A DNA stretch of 64,000 nucleotides from Legionellaceae bacterium (GTDB lineage Bacteria; Pseudomonadota; Gammaproteobacteria; Legionellales; Legionellaceae): contig JARGNV010000004.1 of NCBI GenBank assembly GCA_029212465.1, positions 41,580-105,579 on the forward strand. Reading direction: 5' to 3'. Position numbers and translations under genes: made by a program. This document shows, piece by piece, positions 1-12,860 of this stretch (position 1 is the first letter of the stretch; every line of letters begins with the position of its first letter). The notes beneath the pieces were generated by a model, which searched no databases, was not told the origin of the DNA, and worked only from the letters and a program-made list of their open reading frames with translations.

Positions 1-36
1 AAACTGACGGATTATTGCACAAATCAAACTAAAAAC

Positions 37-41: not shown

Positions 42-60
42 TAGAAGTTACGCATTGACA
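42..60. repeat. Terminal inverted repeat of the IS (transposase 3' side)
   Basis: Exact reverse complement of 1174-1192. A third copy with one deleted base lies at 4336-4353. Confidence 0.85.
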
Positions 61-1115
61 GCTCTCTGAAATTTCGGATTCAAATGCTCTTTAGTTTGGG
101 CAAACATTCCAATAAACGAAGCGATTACTTCATTGAATAATTCTCGGCGCAACCGATAACAATTACTGTTCATATCCATAGCTCTTAATTTCTGAAGCTC
201 CACATAACCACAAATTGAAGCAAACAAATGGTTTTTAACGGCAACTTTACTGCGAACTTGAAAGCTTTCAATATTACAGACTTGCTTGATTGCGCGGTGA
301 TATTGCTCGTTCTGCCAGTGTTGACCGTGTATTTGTTCAAAATTAGATTTGTTTAAAAGGCTAAATCTTGCTCCATCGTCGGGTGGACCTTCTTCGTTAG
401 GCAAGTGCATTGCGTAATGACGAACTTGGTCTTTTAAATTCGTCCGGAACAGCTTTACTTGCCCAAAATCACGTAACCAAACAACTAATCCATCGTCTGG
501 TATCTCCAGGGTTTGTACTTGTTGCCATGTGCCTTTTTCAATAGAAACCAGGCGATTACTTTCGAGTGCAAATAAAAATTCAAGGTGATGGTTTTTTATC
601 GCTTTTAAATTTTTTACGCAACTGTACCAACTATCGCCGGTGACACAAGCAGACTCTAGGCCCCAAGCCAATACCTCAGCCAACATTTCTAGAAAATAAT
701 CATTTTTTGTTTTGCCTTCCGCTTTGTCATAGACACGAAAATTCACGGGTTGATGTTGCCCATGAGGGTCAGTGTAATAAAGGGTTATTAGATTGATTCC
801 CTTGACCACTTTATGATGCTTTCCAGACCAATAATGGCCAACTAAGGCAATATAATGTGCATAAGGCTTATCAAGCACACTATCATCGACACTGAGCGTT
901 CCTCCTTGTAAATTCAAAGTCGGTTTTACTTCAATGAATAAATCATGTGCAGAATAAGATTCTCTGTTCAAAAACCGATTAACACTATCATGAGAAATAT
1001 CCATGACAGAAGCTAAGCGACTACAGCTGACACCTTTTGGCTCGCTTAATAGAAATTCAATATACATCGGTAATGCGCACCGTGCGGTTGATGGGCGGGT
1101 AAGCGTTCGTATCAA
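48..1115 (-). CDS. DDE transposase, IS4/IS701-like superfamily
   Basis: Candidate catalytic motifs are LSVDDSVLDK, VTGDSWYS and HWQNEQYHRAIKQ (a YREK-like signature). The track start is TTG. The frame is open to the IS end, and the first ATG is at 1067 (MYIEFLL...), so the true start is uncertain. Confidence 0.8.
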   Translation of the reverse strand: MIRTLTRPSTARCALPMYIEFLLSEPKGVSCSRLASVMDISHDSVNRFLNRESYSAHDLFIEVKPTLNLQGGTLSVDDSVLDKPYAHYIALVGHYWSGKHHKVVKGINLITLYYTDPHGQHQPVNFRVYDKAEGKTKNDYFLEMLAEVLAWGLESACVTGDSWYSCVKNLKAIKNHHLEFLFALESNRLVSIEKGTWQQVQTLEIPDDGLVVWLRDFGQVKLFRTNLKDQVRHYAMHLPNEEGPPDDGARFSLLNKSNFEQIHGQHWQNEQYHRAIKQVCNIESFQVRSKVAVKNHLFASICGYVELQKLRAMDMNSNCYRLRRELFNEVIASFIGMFAQTKEHLNPKFQRAVNA

Positions 1116-1173
1116 AATGTGCCTTCCGGTGGCGTATCTTCTTTTCTTCGAATTATCAGAAATTTTGAAGCTT

Positions 1174-1192
1174 TGTCAATGCGTAACTTCTA
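1174..1192. repeat. Terminal inverted repeat of the IS (transposase 5' side)
   Basis: TGTCAATGCGTAACTTCTA is the reverse complement of 42-60. Confidence 0.85.
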
Positions 1193-1316
1193 TAAGATCA
1201 CATTCTTGGATGAATTTAAAGTCACACGTGATCTCGCCCTGTGATTCCTGGTTGTTTTATATTTTGATTGTTGTGTATAGTGGGAGCACTAGAAAATTTG
1301 ATAAAAATATTAAGTA

Positions 1317-1487
1317 ATGTTTGATAAAGCAAAGCCAGCCAGTCATTATTCTGAACCTTCTGCATCTTTGCCTGAAAGAAAATCTAAAGTGTACCAAGCC
1401 CCTACTATAACCCCCCTTGACAACAGTGAGCCAGAGAGCGGGAGTTCAAATGTGCCCGAAACCAATGCCGGCGTATTAGAATCTTAG
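1317..1487 (+). CDS. Unannotated 56-codon ORF (MFDKAKPASHYSEPSASLPERKSKVYQAPTITPLDNSEPESGSSNVPETNAGVLES); hypothetical small peptide
   Basis: My own translation. The ORF is below the track's length cut-off. ATG is at 1317 and TAG at 1485-1487, 1 nt before the ATG of the downstream gene. There is no clear Shine-Dalgarno sequence, and a 48-codon ORF also exists on the opposite strand. Confidence 0.3.
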   Translation: MFDKAKPASHYSEPSASLPERKSKVYQAPTITPLDNSEPESGSSNVPETNAGVLES

Positions 1488-1488
1488 T

Positions 1489-3147
1489 ATGATGCCGCAA
1501 TATTCCATACGTCCCGCCGTGCTGAATGCCAGTGGTTTTTTTCAGACTAGGCTTAATTCGTCGTGCGTAATTTATAGCGCGTCACCCCATGAGTCTATAC
1601 CCATAACCTCGTTTGAAGATAGCTTAAACCCTCTGCATTACCGTACAGTATTTCATCCGTTTGCCCAAGTTATCGAAAATAAACGTACAGGTGAGCACCT
1701 TTTGGTCCGTGACCATATGGGCGTACGCCCGTTGTATTACTATCATCATTCAGACCAACTTATTTTTGGCGACACCATTCCCGACATCATTCGTCAGTTA
1801 CCCCAAGCACCAGCCTTTCTTGATTCAGAAGTAGCTCACTTATTTGGGGATGTCCAACATTATACCGACAACACGCTCTACACAGCTATTTATCGTGTTG
1901 ATCCGGGTACGATGGTTCACATTAAGCCGGATGGACACATTAAAAAATCAGTGTTTTGGCAACTAGAGCAAGAAGGTGAGACCTTACGCTACCGTGATGA
2001 GCGAAAATACCAGGAGCACTTTACTTCCCTTATGCAGGCGTCTGTCAAACATGCCGCGCAGGGCTCAGATGATTCCACCCTTGCAGCCGAGTTCAGTGCA
2101 GGCATGGATTCAACGGCTATTTATGGCACGTGTGCCGCGCTTGGGTTAAATCCAACACTGTTTATGCATGAGCCTTTATCCAACTCATCCAATGCGAAAA
2201 CCTACAACGATGTGTATGAACGTGCATTCATAGCGCAGTTTTCATCGGCCAAGATTCATCGTGTTCGGGCCGATAATTTTGACCCTCTACGTGTTTTTAA
2301 AGACTATGCCGGCTGGTTTGGGGGTCCCGCACCGTATATTTTTGAATTATTCGCGCATAATCTCCACCAAGCGGTCGGCAGAAAAGGGCATACACGATTA
2401 CTCTCGGGCTTAGGTGGCGACCAAGGGGTATCCAGTCACATTCCTGCACGCTTTATTTTACCCGAGTTGTTGCACAACAAACAATTGAACAAGGCATGGT
2501 GTGAGTCAGCGCAAACAAGCAAGCTTCGCCATATCGCGTTACTTCTTCAATGCGCTCACCCGTCTTTGCATGCCTTGATAAAGCATACTCAAGATTTAAA
2601 ACTAAACACCCGTAATCTATTCAAAAAGCCCGACCAAAGACAGGTTGCCAGCACCCATCCTTATCATCGCCACTATTTTAAAACCTTACGCGAAGTCGAA
2701 TGGTCTTTTCTTCAAGGCCCCAACAGTCATGCCATGCGTATGCGGATAGAGCACAGCAGTATTGTGGGGAAAAAAATGGGGTTTGATTACCGTTATCCGC
2801 TATTGTACCCACCTTTACTTGAGTTTTTCTTGAGCCTACCCCTCGATCAAAAACGTCATCAAGGGGTGGGTCGACACATGATGCGTCGTTATTTAGCTCA
2901 AATCATGCCATCCGTGCCGTTTCATATGTATCAAAAGAAAGAGGGCATCAATATTGTTCCCGCCACCATGGATACATTTAAGGCGCAATGGGATAGTGGT
3001 GCGTTTCAAATCGCATTTGAAAACCTGGCGTTTAAAAAACTTACCCAAGACAAATCATCTCACAAAGCCATGATAAAAACGATACAAGCGTTCATGCTCA
3101 ACGAGCGCTGCAAAATCACACACGGACATGACGGGAGAAAAGGATGA
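1489..3147 (+). CDS. Asparagine synthetase B-family (PP-loop, adenylating) protein lacking the N-terminal Cys nucleophile; lactam-synthetase/lasso-cyclase-like architecture
   Basis: It has RDHMGVRPLYYY (the AsnB-type RD..G.KPLYY motif) and FSAGMDST (a variant of the SGGxDS PP-loop). The N-terminus is MMPQYS, not MCG. The N-terminal domain is short. Length is 552 aa. Confidence 0.7.
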   Translation: MMPQYSIRPAVLNASGFFQTRLNSSCVIYSASPHESIPITSFEDSLNPLHYRTVFHPFAQVIENKRTGEHLLVRDHMGVRPLYYYHHSDQLIFGDTIPDIIRQLPQAPAFLDSEVAHLFGDVQHYTDNTLYTAIYRVDPGTMVHIKPDGHIKKSVFWQLEQEGETLRYRDERKYQEHFTSLMQASVKHAAQGSDDSTLAAEFSAGMDSTAIYGTCAALGLNPTLFMHEPLSNSSNAKTYNDVYERAFIAQFSSAKIHRVRADNFDPLRVFKDYAGWFGGPAPYIFELFAHNLHQAVGRKGHTRLLSGLGGDQGVSSHIPARFILPELLHNKQLNKAWCESAQTSKLRHIALLLQCAHPSLHALIKHTQDLKLNTRNLFKKPDQRQVASTHPYHRHYFKTLREVEWSFLQGPNSHAMRMRIEHSSIVGKKMGFDYRYPLLYPPLLEFFLSLPLDQKRHQGVGRHMMRRYLAQIMPSVPFHMYQKKEGINIVPATMDTFKAQWDSGAFQIAFENLAFKKLTQDKSSHKAMIKTIQAFMLNERCKITHGHDGRKG

Positions 3148-4148
3148 CACCAAGAGTTAAGCCCCAGCAAAACGTGCTGTTCATTGCACTTACAACCCTT
3201 GCGCTATTGCCGATGACGAGCTTTGCTCAATCAAAGCCCATCATGATCACGGATTTATTCACAAACATATCTCCAACGGAGCCTTGGCGCAAGGGACGAT
3301 TAACCGCGACAAAAACAGTCAATTTTCAGCAATCTTTGAGTGGTGGTACAGATGCTACAACGGTTGCTAAAGTACAGCTTGGTTATTTTACCTCAGCTGA
3401 TTGTACAGGGGCGTTAGCAGGCACGGGTTTTTACACAACCCCTAATGGAACATCATTTAACATCAGCGTAGGCAGCCCATTTGGGCTTGTAGCTGCGTCC
3501 ACCTGGAATGTAGGTGTTAATCAACTAGGCATAAGCACGGGGGATATGGCTAACATACAATCCGTTGCCGTGACGTTAAAAAGCACCAACAGCGATGTAC
3601 CACAGTCTAATTTTTCAAATAATAGCTTTGCTTGTGTCGCTGTGACATGTGCTACTAATGCCTGTACCTCAGCTGCTGGTACACAAATTTTTCAACTCAA
3701 AATAACAGCGGCAGTAGGTGACCCTGCAGATGGTGGGGTGATTGCAGATGTAGTAGGTCTCATTGCTACGGCGTCGGATGCTGGTAGCTATGAATGGGGT
3801 GGAAATGGCACAACAACTACCGCCCGAAGTTTTACAGATGGTGCTGAAAACACCTCAACCATCGTAACAACACTTGGTACAAGTTCAAATTACGCTGCTC
3901 TCGTTTGCAATGAGCTCTCTATCAGAGGCGGCTACACCACTGGCTGGTTTTTACCCGCCCTAGACCAGTTGTCTGCGCTGTATACGAATCAGGCGAATAT
4001 CGGTGGTTTTACCACTGGGAGGTACTGGAGCTCTACTGAGCAGAACAGCACTAAAGCGTATTTCCAGAGATTCAATAATGGCTCTCGGTTCAGTGATGAT
4101 AAGTACTTTGCCTTCCGTGTTCGGTGTGTTCGGGCTTTTACCCCTTAA
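3144..4148 (+). CDS. Secreted protein with C-terminal DUF1566 (Lcl C-terminal domain-like) module
   Basis: The signal peptide is ...LFIALTTLALLPMTSFA|QS. The C-terminus GWFLPALDQLSALY...RYWSSTEQ...FRVRCVRAF matches the DUF1566 pattern. The start overlaps the upstream stop (ATGA), and a GGAG-type SD is present. Confidence 0.75.
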   Translation: MTPRVKPQQNVLFIALTTLALLPMTSFAQSKPIMITDLFTNISPTEPWRKGRLTATKTVNFQQSLSGGTDATTVAKVQLGYFTSADCTGALAGTGFYTTPNGTSFNISVGSPFGLVAASTWNVGVNQLGISTGDMANIQSVAVTLKSTNSDVPQSNFSNNSFACVAVTCATNACTSAAGTQIFQLKITAAVGDPADGGVIADVVGLIATASDAGSYEWGGNGTTTTARSFTDGAENTSTIVTTLGTSSNYAALVCNELSIRGGYTTGWFLPALDQLSALYTNQANIGGFTTGRYWSSTEQNSTKAYFQRFNNGSRFSDDKYFAFRVRCVRAFTP

Positions 4149-4152
4149 TCCC

Positions 4153-4353
4153 TGCCGTTAAAAACCATTTGTTTGCTTCAATTTGTGGTTATGTGGAGCT
4201 TCAGAAATTAAGAGCTATGGATATGAACAGTAATTGTTATCGGTTGCGCCGAGAATTATTCAATGAAGTAATCGCTTCGTTTATTGGAATGTTTGCCCAA
4301 ACTAAAGAGCATTTGAATCCGAAATTTCAGAGCGCTGTCATGCGTAACTTCTA
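4153..4353 (+). mobile_element. 201-bp terminal remnant of the IS at 42-1192, in inverted orientation
   Basis: 4153-4353 equals the reverse complement of 42-243 apart from one substitution (GAGAGC>GAGCGC) and one single-base deletion inside the IR (TGTCAATGCG>TGTCATGCG). It begins 5 nt after the DUF1566 stop codon. Confidence 0.9.
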
Positions 4354-4358: not shown

Positions 4359-4608
4359 TAAATCACTACAAAAAAAGTATATTGTAGTAGGTTATACTTC
4401 AATTCAAAAACCTATAGGCAATACAAAAAAATTGTGTTAGCATCTATCAATCTCAAAGATATTACGAATGCGCGTGGGGCGCCAAAGCCGCACAATACTA
4501 TATATGATTAAGCCATCGTTTCTGCCACGATGCTTTTCGTAACATAAATTCTGGATACCGATTGCATTTAACCAAAAATTTTTAATCAACAACCTCAAAG
4601 CGAGACCT

Positions 4609-5877
4609 ATGAACCTCAGTGAATTAAAGCGATTACCTATTGCTGAATTGGTAAACATCGCGCAAGAAGCAAAAATTGATAATACCTCTCGAATGCGAAA
4701 GCAAGACATCATTTTCTCCATTTTAAAAGCACATGCCGCCAAAGGTGCCGATATTTATGGTAATGGTGTCGTCGAAATTTTACCTGAAGGGGGCTTTGGC
4801 TTCTTACGCTCTCCAGATGGATCTTATCTAGCAGGGCCCGACGATATCTATGTATCTCCCAGTCAAATCAGACGCTTTGGCCTGCGTACGGGTGATACCA
4901 TTTCAGGGAAAATTCGTCCCCCAAAAGATAACGAGCGTTATTTTGCATTACTTAAAGTTGATAAAATCAATTATGACACCCCTGAAAATGCAAAACGTAA
5001 AATCCTTTTTGAAAACTTAACCCCACTGTTTGCCTCCGAGCGCTTAGTGATGGAGCAGGGTAATGGCAGTACCGAAGACTTAACAGCACGCGTTATTGAC
5101 CTTGCTGCACCTTTCGGACTCGGTCAGCGTGGATTGATTGTTGCACCGCCTAAAGCTGGTAAAACTATCATGCTGCAAAATATCGCACACTCCATTGCAA
5201 AAAATTATCCTGACTGTCATTTAATTGTTTTGCTTATCGATGAGCGCCCTGAGGAAGTCACTGAAATGCAACGCTCTGTTAAAGGAGAAGTGGTTGCTAG
5301 TACTTTTGATGAGCCTGCAACCCGTCACGTGCAAGTTGCCGAAATGGTTATTGAAAAGGCCAAACGCTTGGTTGAGCACAAAAAAGACGTTGTGATTTTA
5401 CTAGACTCTTTAACACGCCTTGCACGCGCTTACAACACCGTAGTACCATCTTCTGGCAAAGTACTCACCGGTGGTGTCGATGCCAATGCCCTACAACGAC
5501 CCAAGCGTTTGTATGGTGCTGCACGAAATATCGAGGAAGGGGGAAGTCTTACTATCCTTGCTACAGCAATGGTTGAAACTGGCTCTAAAATGGATGAAGT
5601 TATCTATGAGGAATTTAAAGGTACGGGTAATATGGAAATCCACCTGAGCCGTACTATTTCTGAGCGTCGCACATTCCCAGCCATTAATATTAACCGCTCA
5701 GGCACACGTCGCGAAGACTTACTGCTTTCCCCCGAAGAACTCCAACGCATGTGGATTTTGCGTAAAATTCTACAACCAATGGATGAATCAGATGCCATTG
5801 AGTTTTTACTTGAACGCATGAAAAGCCACAAAACAAATGCTGAGTTTTTCGCGGCTATGAAACGCCAAGAGAAATAA
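4609..5877 (+). CDS. rho: Transcription termination factor Rho
   Basis: Full-length Rho-like sequence ([15 protein letters not shown]..., Walker A APPKAGKT, ...[10 protein letters not shown]). Confidence 0.97.
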
Positions 5878-5896
5878 ATATATTGGGGACATTTTA

Positions 5897-7372
5897 ATGA
5901 AGTATGGTGACTTGCGTGATTTTATTGATTATCTAGAATCACGCCAGTTACTGACTCGCATTGATTACCCTGTCTCACCTTACCTTGAAATGACCGCAGT
6001 CAGTGACAAAGTCTTGCGAGATAAGGGACCAGCACTGCTTTTTACGCGCCCCTTGCATCATCAAACACCTGTTCTCACGAACCTATTTGGCACTGTTGAA
6101 CGCGTTGCTCTGGCCATGGGGCAAGAAGATATCAAGGCGCTTCGTGATATCGGACAGCTTCTTGCTGCATTGAAAGAGCCAGAGCCCCCCAAAAGCTTTA
6201 AAGGCGCCTTCCAACAACTCCCACTTTTAAAGCACGCACTCAACATGGCCCCTAAAAAAACCGAGCGGGCTGTCTGCCAAACTCACGTTTTAGAAGGAGA
6301 CGCGGTCGACCTCACAAAGCTCCCCATTCAAACTTGTTGGCCTGAAGATGTCGCACCACTGATAACCTGGGGGCTTGTCACTACAAAAGGGCCACATCAA
6401 ACACGCGAAAACATTGGTATTTATCGTCAGCAAGTGCTCAATAAAAACCAACTCATTATGCGCTGGCTTGCACACCGTGGTGGTGCCCTCGACTACTTAG
6501 CTTTTCAAAAAGAGCATCCAAAAGAGCGCTTTCCTATTGCCGTCACATTAGGCACCGACCCTGCAACTTTGCTCGCAGCCGTCACGCCAGTACCCGACAG
6601 CTTATCTGAATATGCTTTTGCAGGGCTTTTGCGCGGTAAACGTACGCATCTCACACGTTGTATAGGAAGCGACTTACATGTGCCTGCCAACGCAGAGTTT
6701 GTACTAGAAGGTTATCTTGAGCCAGGCCATGAGGCGCCTGAAGGCCCCTTTGGCGATCACACAGGTTATTATAATGAGGTTGAATCCTTCCCTATATTCA
6801 CCGTTGAGCGCATCACACACCGCCCCGACCCTATTTACCATAGCACCTATACCGGCCGCCCACCGGATGAACCTGCCATTTTAGGGCTTGCCTTAAACGA
6901 CGTGTTTATTCCGCTCTTGCAGAAGCAATTTCCTGAAATCACTGACTTTTATCTACCGCCTGAAGGCTGTTCGTATCGACTTGCCGTTGTCACCATTAAA
7001 AAACAATATCCAGGGCATGCAAAACGCGTCATGATGGCTGTTTGGTCTTTCTTAAAGCAGTTTATGTATACCAAATTTGTCATTGTATGTGACGATGATA
7101 TTGATGCGCGTAATTGGCAAGACGTTATTTGGGCCATGACAACGCGTATGGACCCTGCTCGTGATACCGTCATGATAGATAATACCCCAATGGATTATCT
7201 CGACTTTGCATCCCCGATATCAGGACTTGGCTCAAAAATTGGCATGGATGCAACCAATAAATGGACCGGAGAAACTACGCGGCCTTGGGGCAAACCTATG
7301 AGCATGGACCCCGATATTTTAACAAAAGTCAGCGACTATTGGCCTGAATTAGGACTTGAATCCGATGTCTAA
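5897..7372 (+). CDS. ubiD: 4-hydroxy-3-polyprenylbenzoate decarboxylase UbiD
   Basis: [14 protein letters not shown]...GPALLF is collinear with UbiD. Length is 491 aa, and fre follows as in E. coli. Confidence 0.95.
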
Positions 7373-8078
7373 AGCAATGACACAAGCAGAAGTCACCCAA
7401 GTAACCCCTCTCACTAACCGTTTGCTGCGTGTCACCTTAACCCCTGAGCAGTACGTCGATTATGAGGCTGGTCAATATTTAGAGATTGTGTCTCCCAACC
7501 CAAACGAAACGCCTTATTATTCTATTGCTAATGCCCCACTCGGCTCGAAAACTTATGAGTTGCACATTCGCCACCAACCCAACAACACCGAACAACAACA
7601 TGTGCTAGATGCCATTACAAAACAAGGTCGTGTTATTCTGAACTTGCCATTTGGCCACTGTACACTACACGCACTGAGCGCAACACAACCTATTTTATTC
7701 ATTGCCGCAGGCACAGGATTTGCACCAATTAAGGCAATGATTGAGCAGTTACTTACAGAGGGTCGCACGCAACCATTTGAACTATTCTGGAGCGCACGAA
7801 CAAAAGAAGAACTCTACTTGGATGAGAAAGTATTGGCCTGGGAGAAGCACGTGCCACACTTTAAATACATGCCTCATGCAACAAACGAACATAAAATGTC
7901 TTTCATTGAGCGTATCATGACAGCGCACCAAACGCTTCTCAAGCATCAAATTGTGCTAGCAGGCCCTTTTGATTTTGTATACAAATTACGCGATAAACTC
8001 ATTGAAAAAGGCATACCACAACAACAATTATTTTCTGACGCCTTTCATCTCGAATCCTCATCAGGAGAAGCATTATGA
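7365..8078 (+). CDS. fre: NAD(P)H-flavin reductase Fre (ferredoxin-NADP reductase fold)
   Basis: Motifs [19 protein letters not shown] and FSDAF are present. The track start at 7356 is TTG; the ATG at 7365 has AGGA about 10 nt upstream, and an ATG at 7377 is also possible. Confidence 0.85.
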
Positions 8079-8266
8079 GCACTTTATACCAAATACTCGC
8101 CCTCATTGGCGCAGCCCTTATCGTATGGCTTATCTATCGTGCTATCAAAGGAGACCCAGCGCAGTTCAGTCGTGAAAATTTAGCCAAAAGTTTCTCAAGC
8201 ATGGGCATACTCGCGCTCATTCTTATCGTGTTTGTTGCATTCCTCGTGCTAATGACACGACAATAA
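8075..8266 (+). CDS. Small two-TM membrane protein, hypothetical
   Basis: 63 aa with two hydrophobic helices. The start overlaps the fre stop (ATGA). Confidence 0.5.
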   Translation: MSTLYQILALIGAALIVWLIYRAIKGDPAQFSRENLAKSFSSMGILALILIVFVAFLVLMTRQ

Positions 8267-8306
8267 TGATTCATCCGATAATACTTAACCTCGGGGAGTC
8301 CATTAC

Positions 8307-9248
8307 ATGATCGAAAAAAATGCATTTTCCAATCCGCAACTTCAATGGAACTTCTCTTTTTTAATGTCCAAAGAGTTCTCCCATTTCTTACACCTAATCC
8401 CTGATGCCGCTATCCTCAGCACAGAATCAGGTCAAATTATATTAACCAACCAAACAGCACAAACACTCTTTGGATATACAGAAACAGAATTTCTTCAAGT
8501 CAATATTGAAGATTTAGTCCCAGAAAGCATCAGAGCTGTTCACCCAACCCTACGTGCTACATTTTTTGAAAACCCAGAGCCTAGGCTTTTGAAAAGTAGA
8601 AACTTAAAACTTACAGCCCAAAAGAAAGACAAATCACTATTCCCCATGGAATCAGCGCTATTTGCCATTCAAACCGATAAAGGACCGATTGCCGTTAATT
8701 TGCTACGAGACATCTCAATACAAAAAGCACACGAGGAAAAAATTACTCGGTATGCCTTTGTAGATACGTTAACAAACCTCCCCAACCGCCGCTATTTTGA
8801 CGACAATATCAAGCGTATTGCATCAAAAGTGCGACGAGATAACACGACGCTCGGTATTTTATATATTGATATTGATGCGTTTAAACCTATCAATGATACC
8901 TATGGGCATGAAGCTGGTGACCTTGTGCTACGCACAATAGCCGCCCGTCTCTCCAAGCTCTTACGTAAAGAAGATTTTTTATGCCGCATCGGTGGCGATG
9001 AGTTTATTCTCATCATTCACCCTATTCCTGAAACATATTATTTAGAAACAATAGCCGAACGTATCTTAACTGCATGTAACCAACTCATCCCCTTCAATGA
9101 GCACAGTTTTCATGTATCCGCGAGTATTGGCATTAGTTTCAATGATTCCTCTCAATTTGACGAACAAATACTCATTAAAAATGCCGATAAAGCGATGTAT
9201 CTTGCTAAAAAACAAGGCGGCAATTGCTTTAAACATGCCCCAAAATAA
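8307..9248 (+). CDS. PAS-GGDEF diguanylate cyclase
   Basis: PAS-like N-terminal half. Intact RIGGDEF active site with an RKED (RxxD) I-site five residues upstream. Confidence 0.9.
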   Translation: MIEKNAFSNPQLQWNFSFLMSKEFSHFLHLIPDAAILSTESGQIILTNQTAQTLFGYTETEFLQVNIEDLVPESIRAVHPTLRATFFENPEPRLLKSRNLKLTAQKKDKSLFPMESALFAIQTDKGPIAVNLLRDISIQKAHEEKITRYAFVDTLTNLPNRRYFDDNIKRIASKVRRDNTTLGILYIDIDAFKPINDTYGHEAGDLVLRTIAARLSKLLRKEDFLCRIGGDEFILIIHPIPETYYLETIAERILTACNQLIPFNEHSFHVSASIGISFNDSSQFDEQILIKNADKAMYLAKKQGGNCFKHAPK

Positions 9249-9383
9249 TCACTTCCTCGTGACCTGCACAAGTAGTGATACAGAATCGGACAACTTATTT
9301 GTTACCTGCAGGCTGCTTTATTTTTGTTTTAATTTAAATCTTTGTGTGTTAAAATTTTACCCAATAAAAATTAGGAGATCCTT

Positions 9384-10400
9384 ATGCCAGCATACACCGA
9401 TATAGAAAAAGCAATCCTGAAAGGTAGAATCCAATCCACCTTAAACGAGCACTTAACCCCCCTAACAAGCGTATCCCCAACAGGAGCGCAATTGAAAGAA
9501 ATTGCTGAAAAACAAAAAAAGTTATCGCGTGAATATCAAGAAAAGCAGACGTCCTCGTCTGGAATTCAATCCAACCGCTCACGTATATTACCACGCCACC
9601 GTGCAGCATCATCAATCCTTATGCCGAACCGTATTTCGTTAACCCCCTATGATGGCAATGACAGTGATGAAGATAATTTCCCACCTGCCCAACATGCAGC
9701 GTCCCACATGCTCCCTTCTAAACAAAATTATCGTACAGAAGCAAACGCTCAACCTTCAGAGGCAGAAAAATATCAGAAAGAAAGGACTATTTTAGCCGAA
9801 AAAAGCGCTCTGTTAAAACAGGCATCAATGGAGTGGAATAGAAGTAATCATAGTAGCGCTCGACTAAAAGCCGCTTCACAGCAACCTATGACACATTTTG
9901 GCACACGCTTGTCTCACAAAGAACGTCTTGATGCGATAGAAACAACAGCACTTAACAATATTGAGGGCCGTGTAGACCCACTTTATTTATTTGAACAAAG
10001 AATCAGCTTATCGATAGATAAGCTGCTTAATAGGGAAAAACGAGATACAGCACAGTTTGAAAAAGAGCTTAAAGCACATATCTCAGAGCTTGCACGTGGC
10101 TTTAGACAATATGGCCAAGCTAAAATTGCAGATTATGCTGTTGCGTTTGGTAAAGCATTGCTAGGTGTTTTAGTGTCTATTCTTACGTCACCGGCACTTG
10201 CGGTCTCTTCTGAATATCGCAGAAATATAAGAAATACTTTCTTTGCAGGCCCTGAGACAGATGAAAGTCGCAATGTGCAAGCAAAATTAGGCAACCAATT
10301 TGTAACCGCGTTGCTGTCTAAAGCAAAAGAAGAACCAAAAGACGCCTCTTGTGAGGACATGCACGACTTTTATGAACTAAGAGGTAATGGCTATTATTAA
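9384..10400 (+). CDS. Hypothetical protein, low-complexity/coiled-coil, effector-like orphan
   Basis: AGGAG SD 7 nt upstream. I recognise no family. The C-terminal 30 aa are acidic. Confidence 0.6.
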   Translation: MPAYTDIEKAILKGRIQSTLNEHLTPLTSVSPTGAQLKEIAEKQKKLSREYQEKQTSSSGIQSNRSRILPRHRAASSILMPNRISLTPYDGNDSDEDNFPPAQHAASHMLPSKQNYRTEANAQPSEAEKYQKERTILAEKSALLKQASMEWNRSNHSSARLKAASQQPMTHFGTRLSHKERLDAIETTALNNIEGRVDPLYLFEQRISLSIDKLLNREKRDTAQFEKELKAHISELARGFRQYGQAKIADYAVAFGKALLGVLVSILTSPALAVSSEYRRNIRNTFFAGPETDESRNVQAKLGNQFVTALLSKAKEEPKDASCEDMHDFYELRGNGYY

Positions 10401-10414
10401 ATAAAGAAAAAAGC

Positions 10415-10425
10415 CCCTACTTGGG
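10415..10425. repeat. 11-bp target-site duplication CCCTACTTGGG (left)
   Basis: Identical copy at 11851-11861, directly outside the IS4-like inverted repeats. Confidence 0.8.
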
Positions 10426-11850
10426 TAATGCCAGTCAGTTAAGCTGACTGGCATTTTTATTTTCTCTTTTAGTAGGATATTTTTGAGGCCTTCGCTTTAC
10501 AACCCTTGGATAATTCCTCTCTCGCTTATCAGGTAAAACAAAGGCTTTTGCCATGTTCACCATATCACTCAATACTTTGGGTATTTTTCCTGGCGAAACA
10601 CTTGGTAACACAGTTAGTTCCCTGATTATATATGCTGACGCTTGATTAAAACTAAGCTGATTAAGCTCTATTCCATCAATAGAATATGCCATTCTCGCCA
10701 TTTGGAAGCGAATGAGATTATATGCCAAAAGAACACCCCAAAGTTCTTGGCGTATCATATCAGGCTTTTTACTTCTTAAGGTTAAGCGGTTTTGTAATAA
10801 ATATTGCTTCATTTCTCTATATCCAAGCTCTATTTCCCATCGCTGGCTATACAAACTAACTATATCTGCTGCTGGAAAGCGCATTGGATCAACCATAGAG
10901 GTTAGCATTTGAATAGTTTTTCCATTGACAGATTTTGTTAGCAGTCGAGCCGTAATTGTATCTGGCAAATCTGGCCATTTTTTTCTTGCCTGTGGGCACG
11001 GAGTTAACTCAATAATTTCTTGGTCTTTACCAAGCCGCCGTATCACTTTGTACTGCCGGTTTTTCTTTAATGGGATCAGCCAGTGTCGCTGTGTTCCGGT
11101 GGTGTGCCATCGGTGAAGTAACCCGAGAGAGTAAAAGCCTTTATCAAACACTGTTAGCGAGTGATCTGGCGTTTTATCAATAAGGTTTGCAGCAAGTTGC
11201 ATTTCATTAACTTCCACACTTGCAAATGAAGAGCCTGTAAGTAAATGGCTTGTCAGCTCCATCTGACAGACCATACGTACCTGCGGATAATCTGACTCGC
11301 TTACTTTGTTGCGAGTTCTCGAAAATGCCTTTTGATTTTCAGGTGAATCAGGAGTACGCCAAACAACGCCATCAACACCTAGCAACTTTAGGCCGCACCA
11401 GTTTGGATGGGGAGTTTGGTTGTTCCACAGAGCTTGAGTCTGTTCAAACACCTCTTTAACTGGCTCTTCTCCAAGGCGCTGTCTAGCTTGAACAACAGCA
11501 CTTGGAGCAACAAAAGGCCGATTTCCCGGAAGAACAATATCCAATTGATTAACAATTTGATTCATTGGTATGTGACGAAAAAGGGCCATGCCTACTACAC
11601 TCCAAACCATCATTTCTAAGGGCAAACGCCTTTTTCTAATCGTGACTGTTCCACTTCGATTCAAACTGGATTTTATTAAATCAGGAGATAAGTATTCGGA
11701 TAAACTTTGAAACTACTCTGAAGAAAATGATTGAATGCTATCTAAAGCTTGACTTAAAAACATAAAAAAAATCCGGTGACCTTACGATCACCAGATTTTG
11801 ATCTGATTTGCCAATTTTGCAAGTAGTTTTTACTTAACTGACAGGCATTA
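10426..11850 (-). mobile_element. IS4-family insertion sequence (1,425 bp)
   Basis: The IRs are TAATGCCAGTCAGTTAAG (10426-10443) and the reverse complement of 11833-11850 (TAATGCCTGTCAGTTAAG), a 17/18 match. There is an 11-bp TSD. Size, IR length and TSD length match what I recall for E. coli IS4. Confidence 0.85.
10435..11763 (-). pseudogene. IS4 InsG-like DDE transposase with an in-frame TAG at codon 17. The track ORF 10435-11664 is the TTG-initiated remainder.
   Basis: It has [16 protein letters not shown] (YREK) and [18 protein letters not shown]. The ATG at 11763 is in frame with the track ORF: MFLSQALDSIQSFSSE-TAG(11713-11715)[26 protein letters not shown] to stop is 443 codons. Confidence 0.75.
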
Positions 11851-11861
11851 CCCTACTTGGG
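11851..11861. repeat. 11-bp target-site duplication CCCTACTTGGG (right)
   Basis: Identical to 10415-10425. Confidence 0.8.
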
Positions 11862-12860
11862 GCTTTTTTCATGTATCAACGCCATTACAACATCTGGTCT
11901 ATCGGTAATAATGCCTTCAACCTGCATGTTAAGCATCTCTTTTGTAAGCGGAACATCTATGTCCATGCCGGTGCGATTAGCATCGGACCATGTCGCAACT
12001 TTCAAACCAAGCGCATGCGCACTATCCAAGTAGGCTTGTGTCATTTCCGCATCTTCAGCGTCCCACCACGCCCCCCCCAATGCTTTGATCATTTCAGGAA
12101 CAGAATTATGATAGTCTTTAAGTAAATATCCCCCGGTCCACTGACCTGCAATAGCAGGTGCACTGTGCCTCAATGTTTTTTCGTGTGCCACATCCGTTAG
12201 ATAAGCTGTTTCTACTGTAGGATTCAATTGCTGTAACAATTGCAAACAACGCCAATCATACGCTTGCACCTTTGTTCTATCCGAAACCCCTTCTGCTCTA
12301 ATCACAGCATCTACTGCGTGCGCCATTGCCTCAGGAGAAGCACTCAAATGAGGCTTGGTTGGGTCGGTTTTCAACTCTATCTGAAAACCAACAGGATAAG
12401 GTGCCGCTGCCTTCATCTCTCGAATCACAGCCTGCAAACTAGGAATTCGAGTTCCATCAAGTGGTTTTTGAACTGCGTAAATGGCTGCGTAATCCGTCAA
12501 TGGCTTGATGCGGCCCACATCATACTGTTGTAACGCTTTAAATGTTAAATTCTTGACAGCTATATCCGCTGCTTCAACCCAGTTCCCTCTGACATCTCTC
12601 GCAATTTCTGGGTCTAAAGTTAAACCATGATGTGCAACTAAAACATTATCTTTGGTCAATACAACATCTACATCCACATAATCGACTCGATGTGCTATAG
12701 CAACATGGAATCCTGGTAATGTATTCTCAGGTGCAAGCCCCCGCGCACCGCGATGCCCATAAACCGTTACACTCTCAGCAGGCAAGGCCACTAAGCATAA
12801 ACCAGCACATAATAAGTGCCGAAAAAATGTTATGAAACAATGTTGCATGTTATTAATCAC
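11853..12860 (-). CDS. Glycerophosphodiester phosphodiesterase family protein, secreted
   Basis: GDPD motif VYGHRGARGLAPENTLPGF and an N-terminal hydrophobic signal. Confidence 0.85.
   Translation of the reverse strand: MINNMQHCFITFFRHLLCAGLCLVALPAESVTVYGHRGARGLAPENTLPGFHVAIAHRVDYVDVDVVLTKDNVLVAHHGLTLDPEIARDVRGNWVEAADIAVKNLTFKALQQYDVGRIKPLTDYAAIYAVQKPLDGTRIPSLQAVIREMKAAAPYPVGFQIELKTDPTKPHLSASPEAMAHAVDAVIRAEGVSDRTKVQAYDWRCLQLLQQLNPTVETAYLTDVAHEKTLRHSAPAIAGQWTGGYLLKDYHNSVPEMIKALGGAWWDAEDAEMTQAYLDSAHALGLKVATWSDANRTGMDIDVPLTKEMLNMQVEGIITDRPDVVMALIHEKSPK

Follow-up and report, generated by a model that had tools for sequence, protein, structure and literature searches.

Compound transposons of the Tn10/Tn5 type are built of cargo genes between inverted insertion sequence (IS) copies with identical outer ends. 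The second copy of such a module can also be partial, as where blaOXA-58 lies between a partial and a full ISAba3 (PMC7885321). Members of the IS701 family were described by De Palmenaer et al. as 1.4 to 1.55 kb long, with target duplications of exactly 4 bp (PMC2266710), and ISAba11 is reported with a “characteristic 5-bp direct repeat” (PMC7885321). Among diversity-generating retroelements (DGRs), DUF1566 is a recognized class of variable protein (category “d”), represented for example by the Legionella DGR (LdtA) (Wu et al. 2018, PMC5758913). Here we describe a 4.3-kb unit at positions 42 to 4353 of a 64,000-nucleotide stretch of a Legionellaceae genome (GenBank contig JARGNV010000004.1; hereinafter the window, C21:41580-105579 of the 61-contig, 1.98-Mb genome G000, which is 97% complete). 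This unit is very probably a compound transposon of an ISAba11/ISPna6-like member of the IS701 family, inserted between yhbY and rho, whose right-hand IS copy was truncated by a deletion, and its cargo is the truncated target module of a DGR.

The unit is bracketed by a complete IS and by the 201-bp end of a second, inverted copy. The reverse complement of positions 42 to 243 aligned with positions 4153 to 4353 with one substitution (window position 63 versus 4333, position 22 from the IS tip) and one 1-bp deletion (55/56 versus the step 4339^4340, IS position 15), so that 188 nucleotides (56 to 243 and 4153 to 4340) are identical. The edges of this homology are sharp, both on the inner side (243/4153) and on the outer side (42/4353), and a 201-nucleotide inverted repeat at 99% identity is far beyond chance. 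The right inverted repeat (IRR) tips face outward at 42 and 4353 around three cargo genes, and ACAAA stands next to both tips. The flanks of the full IS itself are unequal (ACAAA on one side and TAAGA, 1193 to 1197, on the other), and it therefore has no duplication of its own; the ACAAA duplication encloses only the whole unit. Any two 5-mers drawn at random from this genome are the same with a probability of 0.0013. The inverted repeat, with its one substitution and one deletion, and the flanking 5-mers had been pointed out in a first-pass annotation of the sequence, with which our alignment and our reading of the flanks agree. The layout is like that of Tn10 and Tn5 in the outward-facing IS ends, in the duplication around the whole unit rather than around a single IS, and in the presence of one copy that supplies the transposase. 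It also shares with the blaOXA-58/ISAba3 module one full and one partial IS around the cargo, and it differs from such resistance-gene modules in that the second copy was cut to 201 bp by a deletion into the cargo, in that the cargo corresponds to half a DGR, and in that no second insertion is known.

The limits of the full IS (42 to 1192) were placed by its perfect 19-bp terminal inverted repeats (IRs), TAGAAGTTACGCATTGACA, which hold a core common to more than 60 related IS copies; the two ends are 82% complementary over 39 nucleotides. The related copies are 1092 to 1162 bp long and have the common ends TAG[GA]A[CG]TTACGCATTGAC. The transposase matched the NCBIfam model NF049921 (IS701_2) at 378.8 bits (cut-off, 250), a match at the family level, and also matched the Pfam domains DDE_5 and DDE_Tnp_1. 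When it was aligned over its full length with six relatives (49 to 88% identity), D77/D78, D161, and E270 were invariant and no truncation was seen; judged by its sequence, the gene looks intact, and by the usual DDE pattern these residues would be the catalytic ones. Its nearest named relative is ISPna6 (59% amino acid identity), and matches of ~50% in Acinetobacter plasmids, annotated merely as “transposase,” are probably ISAba11. The window IS resembles ISAba11 (Acinetobacter) and ISPna6 (Polaromonas) in its length of ~1.1 kb, single DDE transposase, terminal IRs, and 5-bp duplication, but its amino acid identity to these named elements is just 50 to 59%, and we therefore regard it as an unnamed member of the ISAba11/ISPna6-like group. 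In contrast, classical IS701 elements are longer than this 1151-bp IS and make 4-bp duplications. The −35 hexamer TTGACA of a strong putative transposase promoter, which is a consensus match only, belongs to the left inverted repeat (IRL). The genome holds one full copy of the IS and the remnant, and nothing else of it.

The duplication length of the IS clade was examined in copies from relatives. In the congener G002, the IS copy (82% identical) is flanked by AGGAT and AGGAT (1/1). In a complete Endozoicomonas chromosome, 47/48 distinct copies of an 1116-bp relative (56% amino acid identity) have perfect 5-bp duplications, which are AT-rich and follow no strict consensus. Further diverse relatives from Legionellales, methanotrophs, cyanobacteria, and other groups had 5-bp duplications in 10/14 cases, and these 14 include an 81%-identical relative with an ATTAG duplication. 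The 5-bp habit is limited to the short ISAba11-like subgroup, and 4 bp is the rule for classical IS701. Therefore, the 5-bp duplication around positions 42 to 4353 is the expected product of this transposase.

The unit is preceded, outside the window, by yhbY (C21:41285-41578, minus strand) and rplM-rpsI, and it is followed by rho. To search for empty sites, the two flanks were joined with one ACAAA and run against the genus; the empty allele predicted for the species itself at yhbY-rho is ...AAAAACACAAATAAATCAC.... In the congener G008, which has the order rplM-yhbY-rho, an 82% alignment ran straight over the junction, and the empty site reads ...AAAAATACAATTAAA... (in longer form ...CTAAAAATACAATTAAA..., where the joined G000 flanks give ...CTAAAAACACAAA/TAAATC...). 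In a second congener, G001, yhbY adjoins rho and the spacer reads ...ACACACAAATATA.... Both spacers have a single ACAA[A/T] at the site (ACAAT in G008 and ACAAA in G001), with neither IS nor cargo, and in relatives the cargo genes are always at other loci, never at yhbY-rho. The duplication length of the IS family, the empty site, and the possibility of IS-free cargo at the same locus were the checks proposed in the first-pass annotation, and their outcomes all bear out its suggestion of a composite-transposon-like delivery.

The insertion point is in the least conserved part of the yhbY-rho spacer, at a distance from yhbY of 42 bp if its longest start is taken and of 63 bp if the conserved Met is taken. 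It is outside a 20-nucleotide block beside yhbY (window positions 4 to 23) and outside the conserved rho leader, just upstream of which the unit had correctly been placed. The 20-nucleotide block, CTGACGGATTATTGCACAAA, is identical in G008, and its minus strand resembles an extended −10 element (TGCAATAAT). The rho leader has a conserved hairpin and then a T-run (4514 to 4541). The transposon thus sits between two conserved blocks, at 4 to 23 and at 4400 to 4608.

The cargo genes encode a small peptide, an AsnB-like enzyme, and a DUF1566 protein, and the same trio was found in G004 (a “Legionella sp.” metagenome-assembled genome), in G016 (twice), and in G001. At three loci (G004:C61, G016:C7, and G016:C116) the trio precedes an array of (Avd)-template repeat (TR)-reverse transcriptase (RT), in which a repeat of 131 to 148 nucleotides, a copy of the 3′ end of the DUF1566 gene, stands between the trio and an RT of the RVT_1 type; bAvd is present in G016 only. 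Between this variable repeat (VR) at the 3′ end of the gene and the TR (the downstream copy), 15/17, 12/13, and 18/26 of the mismatches in the G004/G016 pairs are at TR adenines, and such adenine-biased mismatches are the signature of a DGR. The DGR cassette of G016 is present in two copies with 83 to 87% nucleotide identity, each directly followed by a DUF772 (IS5-type) transposase gene (L111, 10703-12172; L112/L116, 6046-7506), and one copy is preceded by a ParE toxin gene; contamination of G016 is 8%, and the two copies may stem from two strains.

The DUF1566 gene of the window has a region homologous to these VRs, and its positions 4116 to 4140 (CGTGTTCGGTGTGTTCGGGCTTTTA) are identical to the VR-type 3′ end in G004, which resembles an initiation of mutagenic homing sequence (GGGC versus GGGG in the TR). 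The 3′ end of this gene was found only once in its own genome, and neither tblastn of that genome with the RTs of two relatives nor a search for Avd gave a match. The sole RVT_1 match in the genome (C29:61206-61853) is an N-terminally truncated, 215-amino-acid fragment with a YADD motif located directly after a clpA-like gene, and by eye it looks like the RT/maturase of a group II intron. Since the assembly has no TR, Avd, or DGR RT, the DUF1566 gene is an orphan, frozen variable gene. Beyond what the first-pass annotation had offered, we can thus name the cargo as a truncated DGR target module; by its homology to the loci of relatives, it corresponds to the front (target-gene) half of a DGR cassette. 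The window protein is like those of Legionella-type DGRs (DUF1566/CLec2) in its C-terminal DUF1566 domain, ending in ...RVRCVR..., and in the VR-type 3′ end. It is unlike them in that the assembly is without TR, Avd, and RT, and in that translational coupling links the gene to an AsnB-like enzyme gene and a lasso-leader-like peptide gene stands before the pair. Neither an AsnB-like enzyme nor a lasso-leader-like peptide is mentioned as DGR linked in a survey of DGRs, where “asparagine” has 0 occurrences (PMC5758913).

The right-hand end of the cargo points to how the second IS copy was lost. Homology between the window and the G004 locus runs past the DUF1566 stop through CCCCTT[A/G]ATCCC to position 4152, where the window passes into IS position 202, while G004 goes on to its TR and RT. 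On its inner side the remnant stops within IS-internal sequence rather than at an IS end, and therefore the second IS was truncated by a deletion that reached the cargo; by this comparison, 4152/4153 is the deletion junction. That a second copy was mostly deleted had been one of two options in the first-pass annotation, and the fusion of the 3′ flank of the cargo to IS-internal sequence speaks for it. By analogy with the closest relatives, the same deletion probably also took the (Avd)-TR-RT half of the cassette.

The substitution and the 1-bp deletion that set the remnant apart from the full copy are both within the terminal 22 bp of the remnant IR, and the other 180 bp are identical. Such clustering has a probability of ~0.01 under uniformity (post hoc), and it could stem from decay of an end no longer in use, from a variant source copy, or from end processing. 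The 1-bp deletion hits the GCATTGAC core, which is conserved in nearly every relative examined, and the deletion is by that comparison the derived state, in the remnant. Because of this damage to the IR, the remnant end would no longer be usable and the composite is probably now immobile; the full IS retains two intact ends. The near identity of the copies had been read as a sign of a recent event, an idea that stands only weakly, with the 188 identical nucleotides in its favor and the two hits already taken by the remnant IR against it.

We propose that a piece of a DGR cassette would at first have lain between two inverted IS copies. Transposase acting on the two outward-facing IRR tips would then have moved the whole segment to an AT-rich site in the yhbY-rho spacer, with duplication of the 5 bp ACAAA. 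A deletion joining a point 4 bp past the DUF1566 stop to position 202 of the right-hand IS would have removed ~950 bp of that IS; it could have come before or after the jump. Left over would be an autonomous-looking IS, a three-gene operon with a frozen variable region, and a damaged solo IS end.

Several observations weigh against this account or limit it. The empty sites are from other species (82% nucleotide identity) and not from a sister strain, and searches of the genome itself, 40 relatives, 5.8 billion proteins, and JGI metagenome contigs turned up neither another copy of the unit nor an intact IS-cargo-IS ancestor, so that mobility as a unit rests on one insertion; when the metagenome contigs were scanned by exact pattern, the IRL/cargo junction and the IRR tip had 0 matches. 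A genome completeness of 97% leaves room for an unassembled RT, and the orientation of positions 244 to 4152 is ambiguous between the perfect 188-bp inverted repeats. An RT-less trio is native in G001, between GGDEF/EAL and usp-ribF-ileS, and the P0027 locus has an RT-less pair without a DUF1566 gene. These native RT-less loci imply that the donor may never have had a TR-RT beside the gene, in which case the right-hand IS of the same composite transposon would have adjoined an already RT-less trio, and only IS sequence and a little spacer would have been lost to the deletion. We consider this version unlikely, if still worth keeping in view, as complete DGRs are present in 3/4 contexts among the closest (~70% identical) relatives, the window keeps a VR-type 3′ end identical to that of G004, and the RT-less trio of G001 is more distant (53 to 55% identity).

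The remaining explanations concern the unit as a whole. A perfect 188-bp inverted repeat in a 61-contig draft is an ambiguous node for short-read assemblers, and a mis-join there could have produced parts that are not contiguous or a flipped segment from 244 to 4152. Nevertheless, such an artifact is very improbable: in two congeners the sequences of both outer flanks form a single continuous spacer, with the 5-bp duplication exact, which a chimeric join would not yield, the outer tips differ in sequence and are therefore distinct loci, and a flip would merely swap the side of the full IS and leave the composite structure unchanged. It is scarcely more credible, and if anything less so, that two independent events were involved, with cargo native to or recombined into the spacer, a full IS then arriving on one side and an IS fragment on the other, and ACAAA matching by chance. 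The word ACAAA is AT rich and common (frequency, 0.002), and a full IS without its own duplication can also be produced by rearrangement. Against this, nothing interrupts the spacer in the congeners, where the exact junction point has one ACAA[A/T], every cargo-bearing relative has the cargo elsewhere, chance equality of the 5-mers has the low probability given above, and inverted, outward-facing IRR tips are what the transposase requires. Two further routes were rejected, namely integration of an IS-bearing circle by homologous recombination, which would give direct rather than inverted IS copies, and inversion between distant inverted IS copies, which would not result in a yhbY-rho distance of 4.3 kb together with equal 5-mers. 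Hence a compound transposon with a truncated right-hand IS is the explanation we prefer.

An N-terminal fragment (amino acids 5 to 80) of a DUF1566-gene homologue is present in G002 (C47, L123, 6162-6390), where it is 79% identical at the nucleotide level to window positions 3252 to 3384. The 82%-related IS (8857-9978) is close by, its IRL end being 2.5 kb away; fragment and IS are oriented to each other as in the window and are separated by an IS5-like fragment and an antitoxin gene. An older IS-cargo association was not adopted from this fragment, since that IS has its own AGGAT duplication and there is no other cargo homology.

No homology could be detected between the cargo leader and the sequences that precede the trios of relatives, which makes the donor-side insertion site (TAAGA) untraceable. 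The small open reading frames (ORFs), of 47 to 67 amino acids (window, L014, L016, L017, L020, L111, L117, and L119), have the common motif [VL]YQ[AP]PxLxxL[ED]xxxPE[TS]G[SGD]xNVPExxxG[LV]L, in which a short acidic core comes after a YxxPxL lasso-leader-like part; with this T/S-G spacing and Glu position, the fit to the usual T(−2)/ring 7-9 rule is ambiguous. No B1/B2 genes adjoin any of these 8 loci. The AsnB-like enzyme is without the N-terminal Cys of glutaminases and scored below the cut-off of the NCBIfam lasso cyclase model NF033535 (136.7 versus 525 bits). Its nearest relatives in a search of 5.8 billion proteins are ≤72% identical, indicating that the donor lineage is unsampled, and no relative was found when the protein was used as a query against the genome-contig collection. 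A canonical lasso cluster was rejected for the first two cargo genes, as the cyclase is under the cut-off and the unit has neither B2 (Transglut_core3) nor B1 (RRE/PqqD). A separate, canonical lasso cluster with the genome's only B1/B2 copies is located at C58:8509-12765, and its products might serve the AsnB-like enzyme as B proteins in trans. The Lcl_C domain of the DUF1566 protein scored 31.7 bits (E value, 2e-7), under the Pfam cut-off of 34.9, and, in a further difference from Legionella-type DGR proteins, the protein has an ordinary Sec-type signal without a lipobox Cys, as read from the sequence. Base composition was uninformative (guanine-plus-cytosine content of 39.6% for the IS, 45.6% for the cargo, and 43.0% for the genome). 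The coordinates of all features are collected in Table 1.

Table 1. Features of the unit and its surroundings in window coordinates, with related loci outside the window
Feature	Position	Strand	Remarks
Left target-site duplication copy, ACAAA	37..41	.	Single copy in empty sites of G008 (ACAAT) and G001 (ACAAA)
Complete 1151-bp IS, IS701 family (ISAba11/ISPna6-like short subgroup)	42..1192	-	IRR tip at 42, IRL tip at 1192
DDE transposase gene, 355 aa	48..1115	-	Stop codon within IRR
Promoter-like site of transposase	1152..1179	-	TTGACA, 16-nt spacer, GATAAT; 11/12 consensus matches
Cargo 5′ leader	1193..1316	+	First 5 bp, TAAGA, are the inner IS flank
56-codon ORF, lasso-leader-like small peptide gene	1317..1487	+	Motif conserved in 8 loci
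AsnB-like/lasso-cyclase-like enzyme gene, 552 aa	1489..3147	+	Pfam Asn_synthase
Secreted DUF1566/Lcl_C protein gene	3144..4148	+	Homologue of DGR variable proteins; start overlaps AsnB-like stop (ATGA)
VR-homologous region of DUF1566 gene	4002..4140	+	Homology to VRs of relatives
Final 4 bp of native cargo 3′ flank	4149..4152	.	Deletion junction, 4152/4153
201-bp remnant of second, inverted IS copy	4153..4353	+	IRR end and last 62 transposase codons; outer tip at 4353
Right target-site duplication copy, ACAAA	4354..4358	.	
rho leader (from ~4400) and rho (4609-5877)	4359..5877	+	Conserved context; unit ends 255 bp before rho ATG
DGR loci of relatives	L110 (G004:C61) 5693-10086; L111 (G016:C7) 5796-10690; L112/L117 (G016:C116)		
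C58 lasso cluster, outside window	PqqD/RRE 8509-8703; Transglut_core3 protease 10862-11107; 637-aa Asn_synthase-type cyclase 11473-12765		

Overall, the locus is a clean example, from a Legionellales-type genome, of how an ISAba11-like IS701-family element can mobilize neighboring genes by forming a compound transposon, and it fixes the 5-bp duplication habit of a little-studied clade. Current knowledge of transposons is not overturned; as a transposon the unit is of an ordinary type, and what is unusual is its cargo, which merits a study in its own right. Capture by an IS followed by TR-RT deletion offers a concrete route to orphan DGR variable-protein genes, and this has a bearing on how genome surveys read RT-less DGR target genes. 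The tie of the AsnB-like/DUF1566 pair to DGRs also gives a testable handle on the function of both genes. We speculate, very tentatively and with doubt outweighing confidence, that the trio is an undescribed DGR-coupled peptide system, in which a lasso-leader-like precursor and a B-protein-less AsnB/lasso-cyclase-like enzyme would share a transcript, and translational coupling, with a secreted DUF1566 protein whose ligand-binding end is diversified in relatives by the DGR. If this is true, the composite transposon shows that the module can spread and persist without an RT, with one variant frozen.

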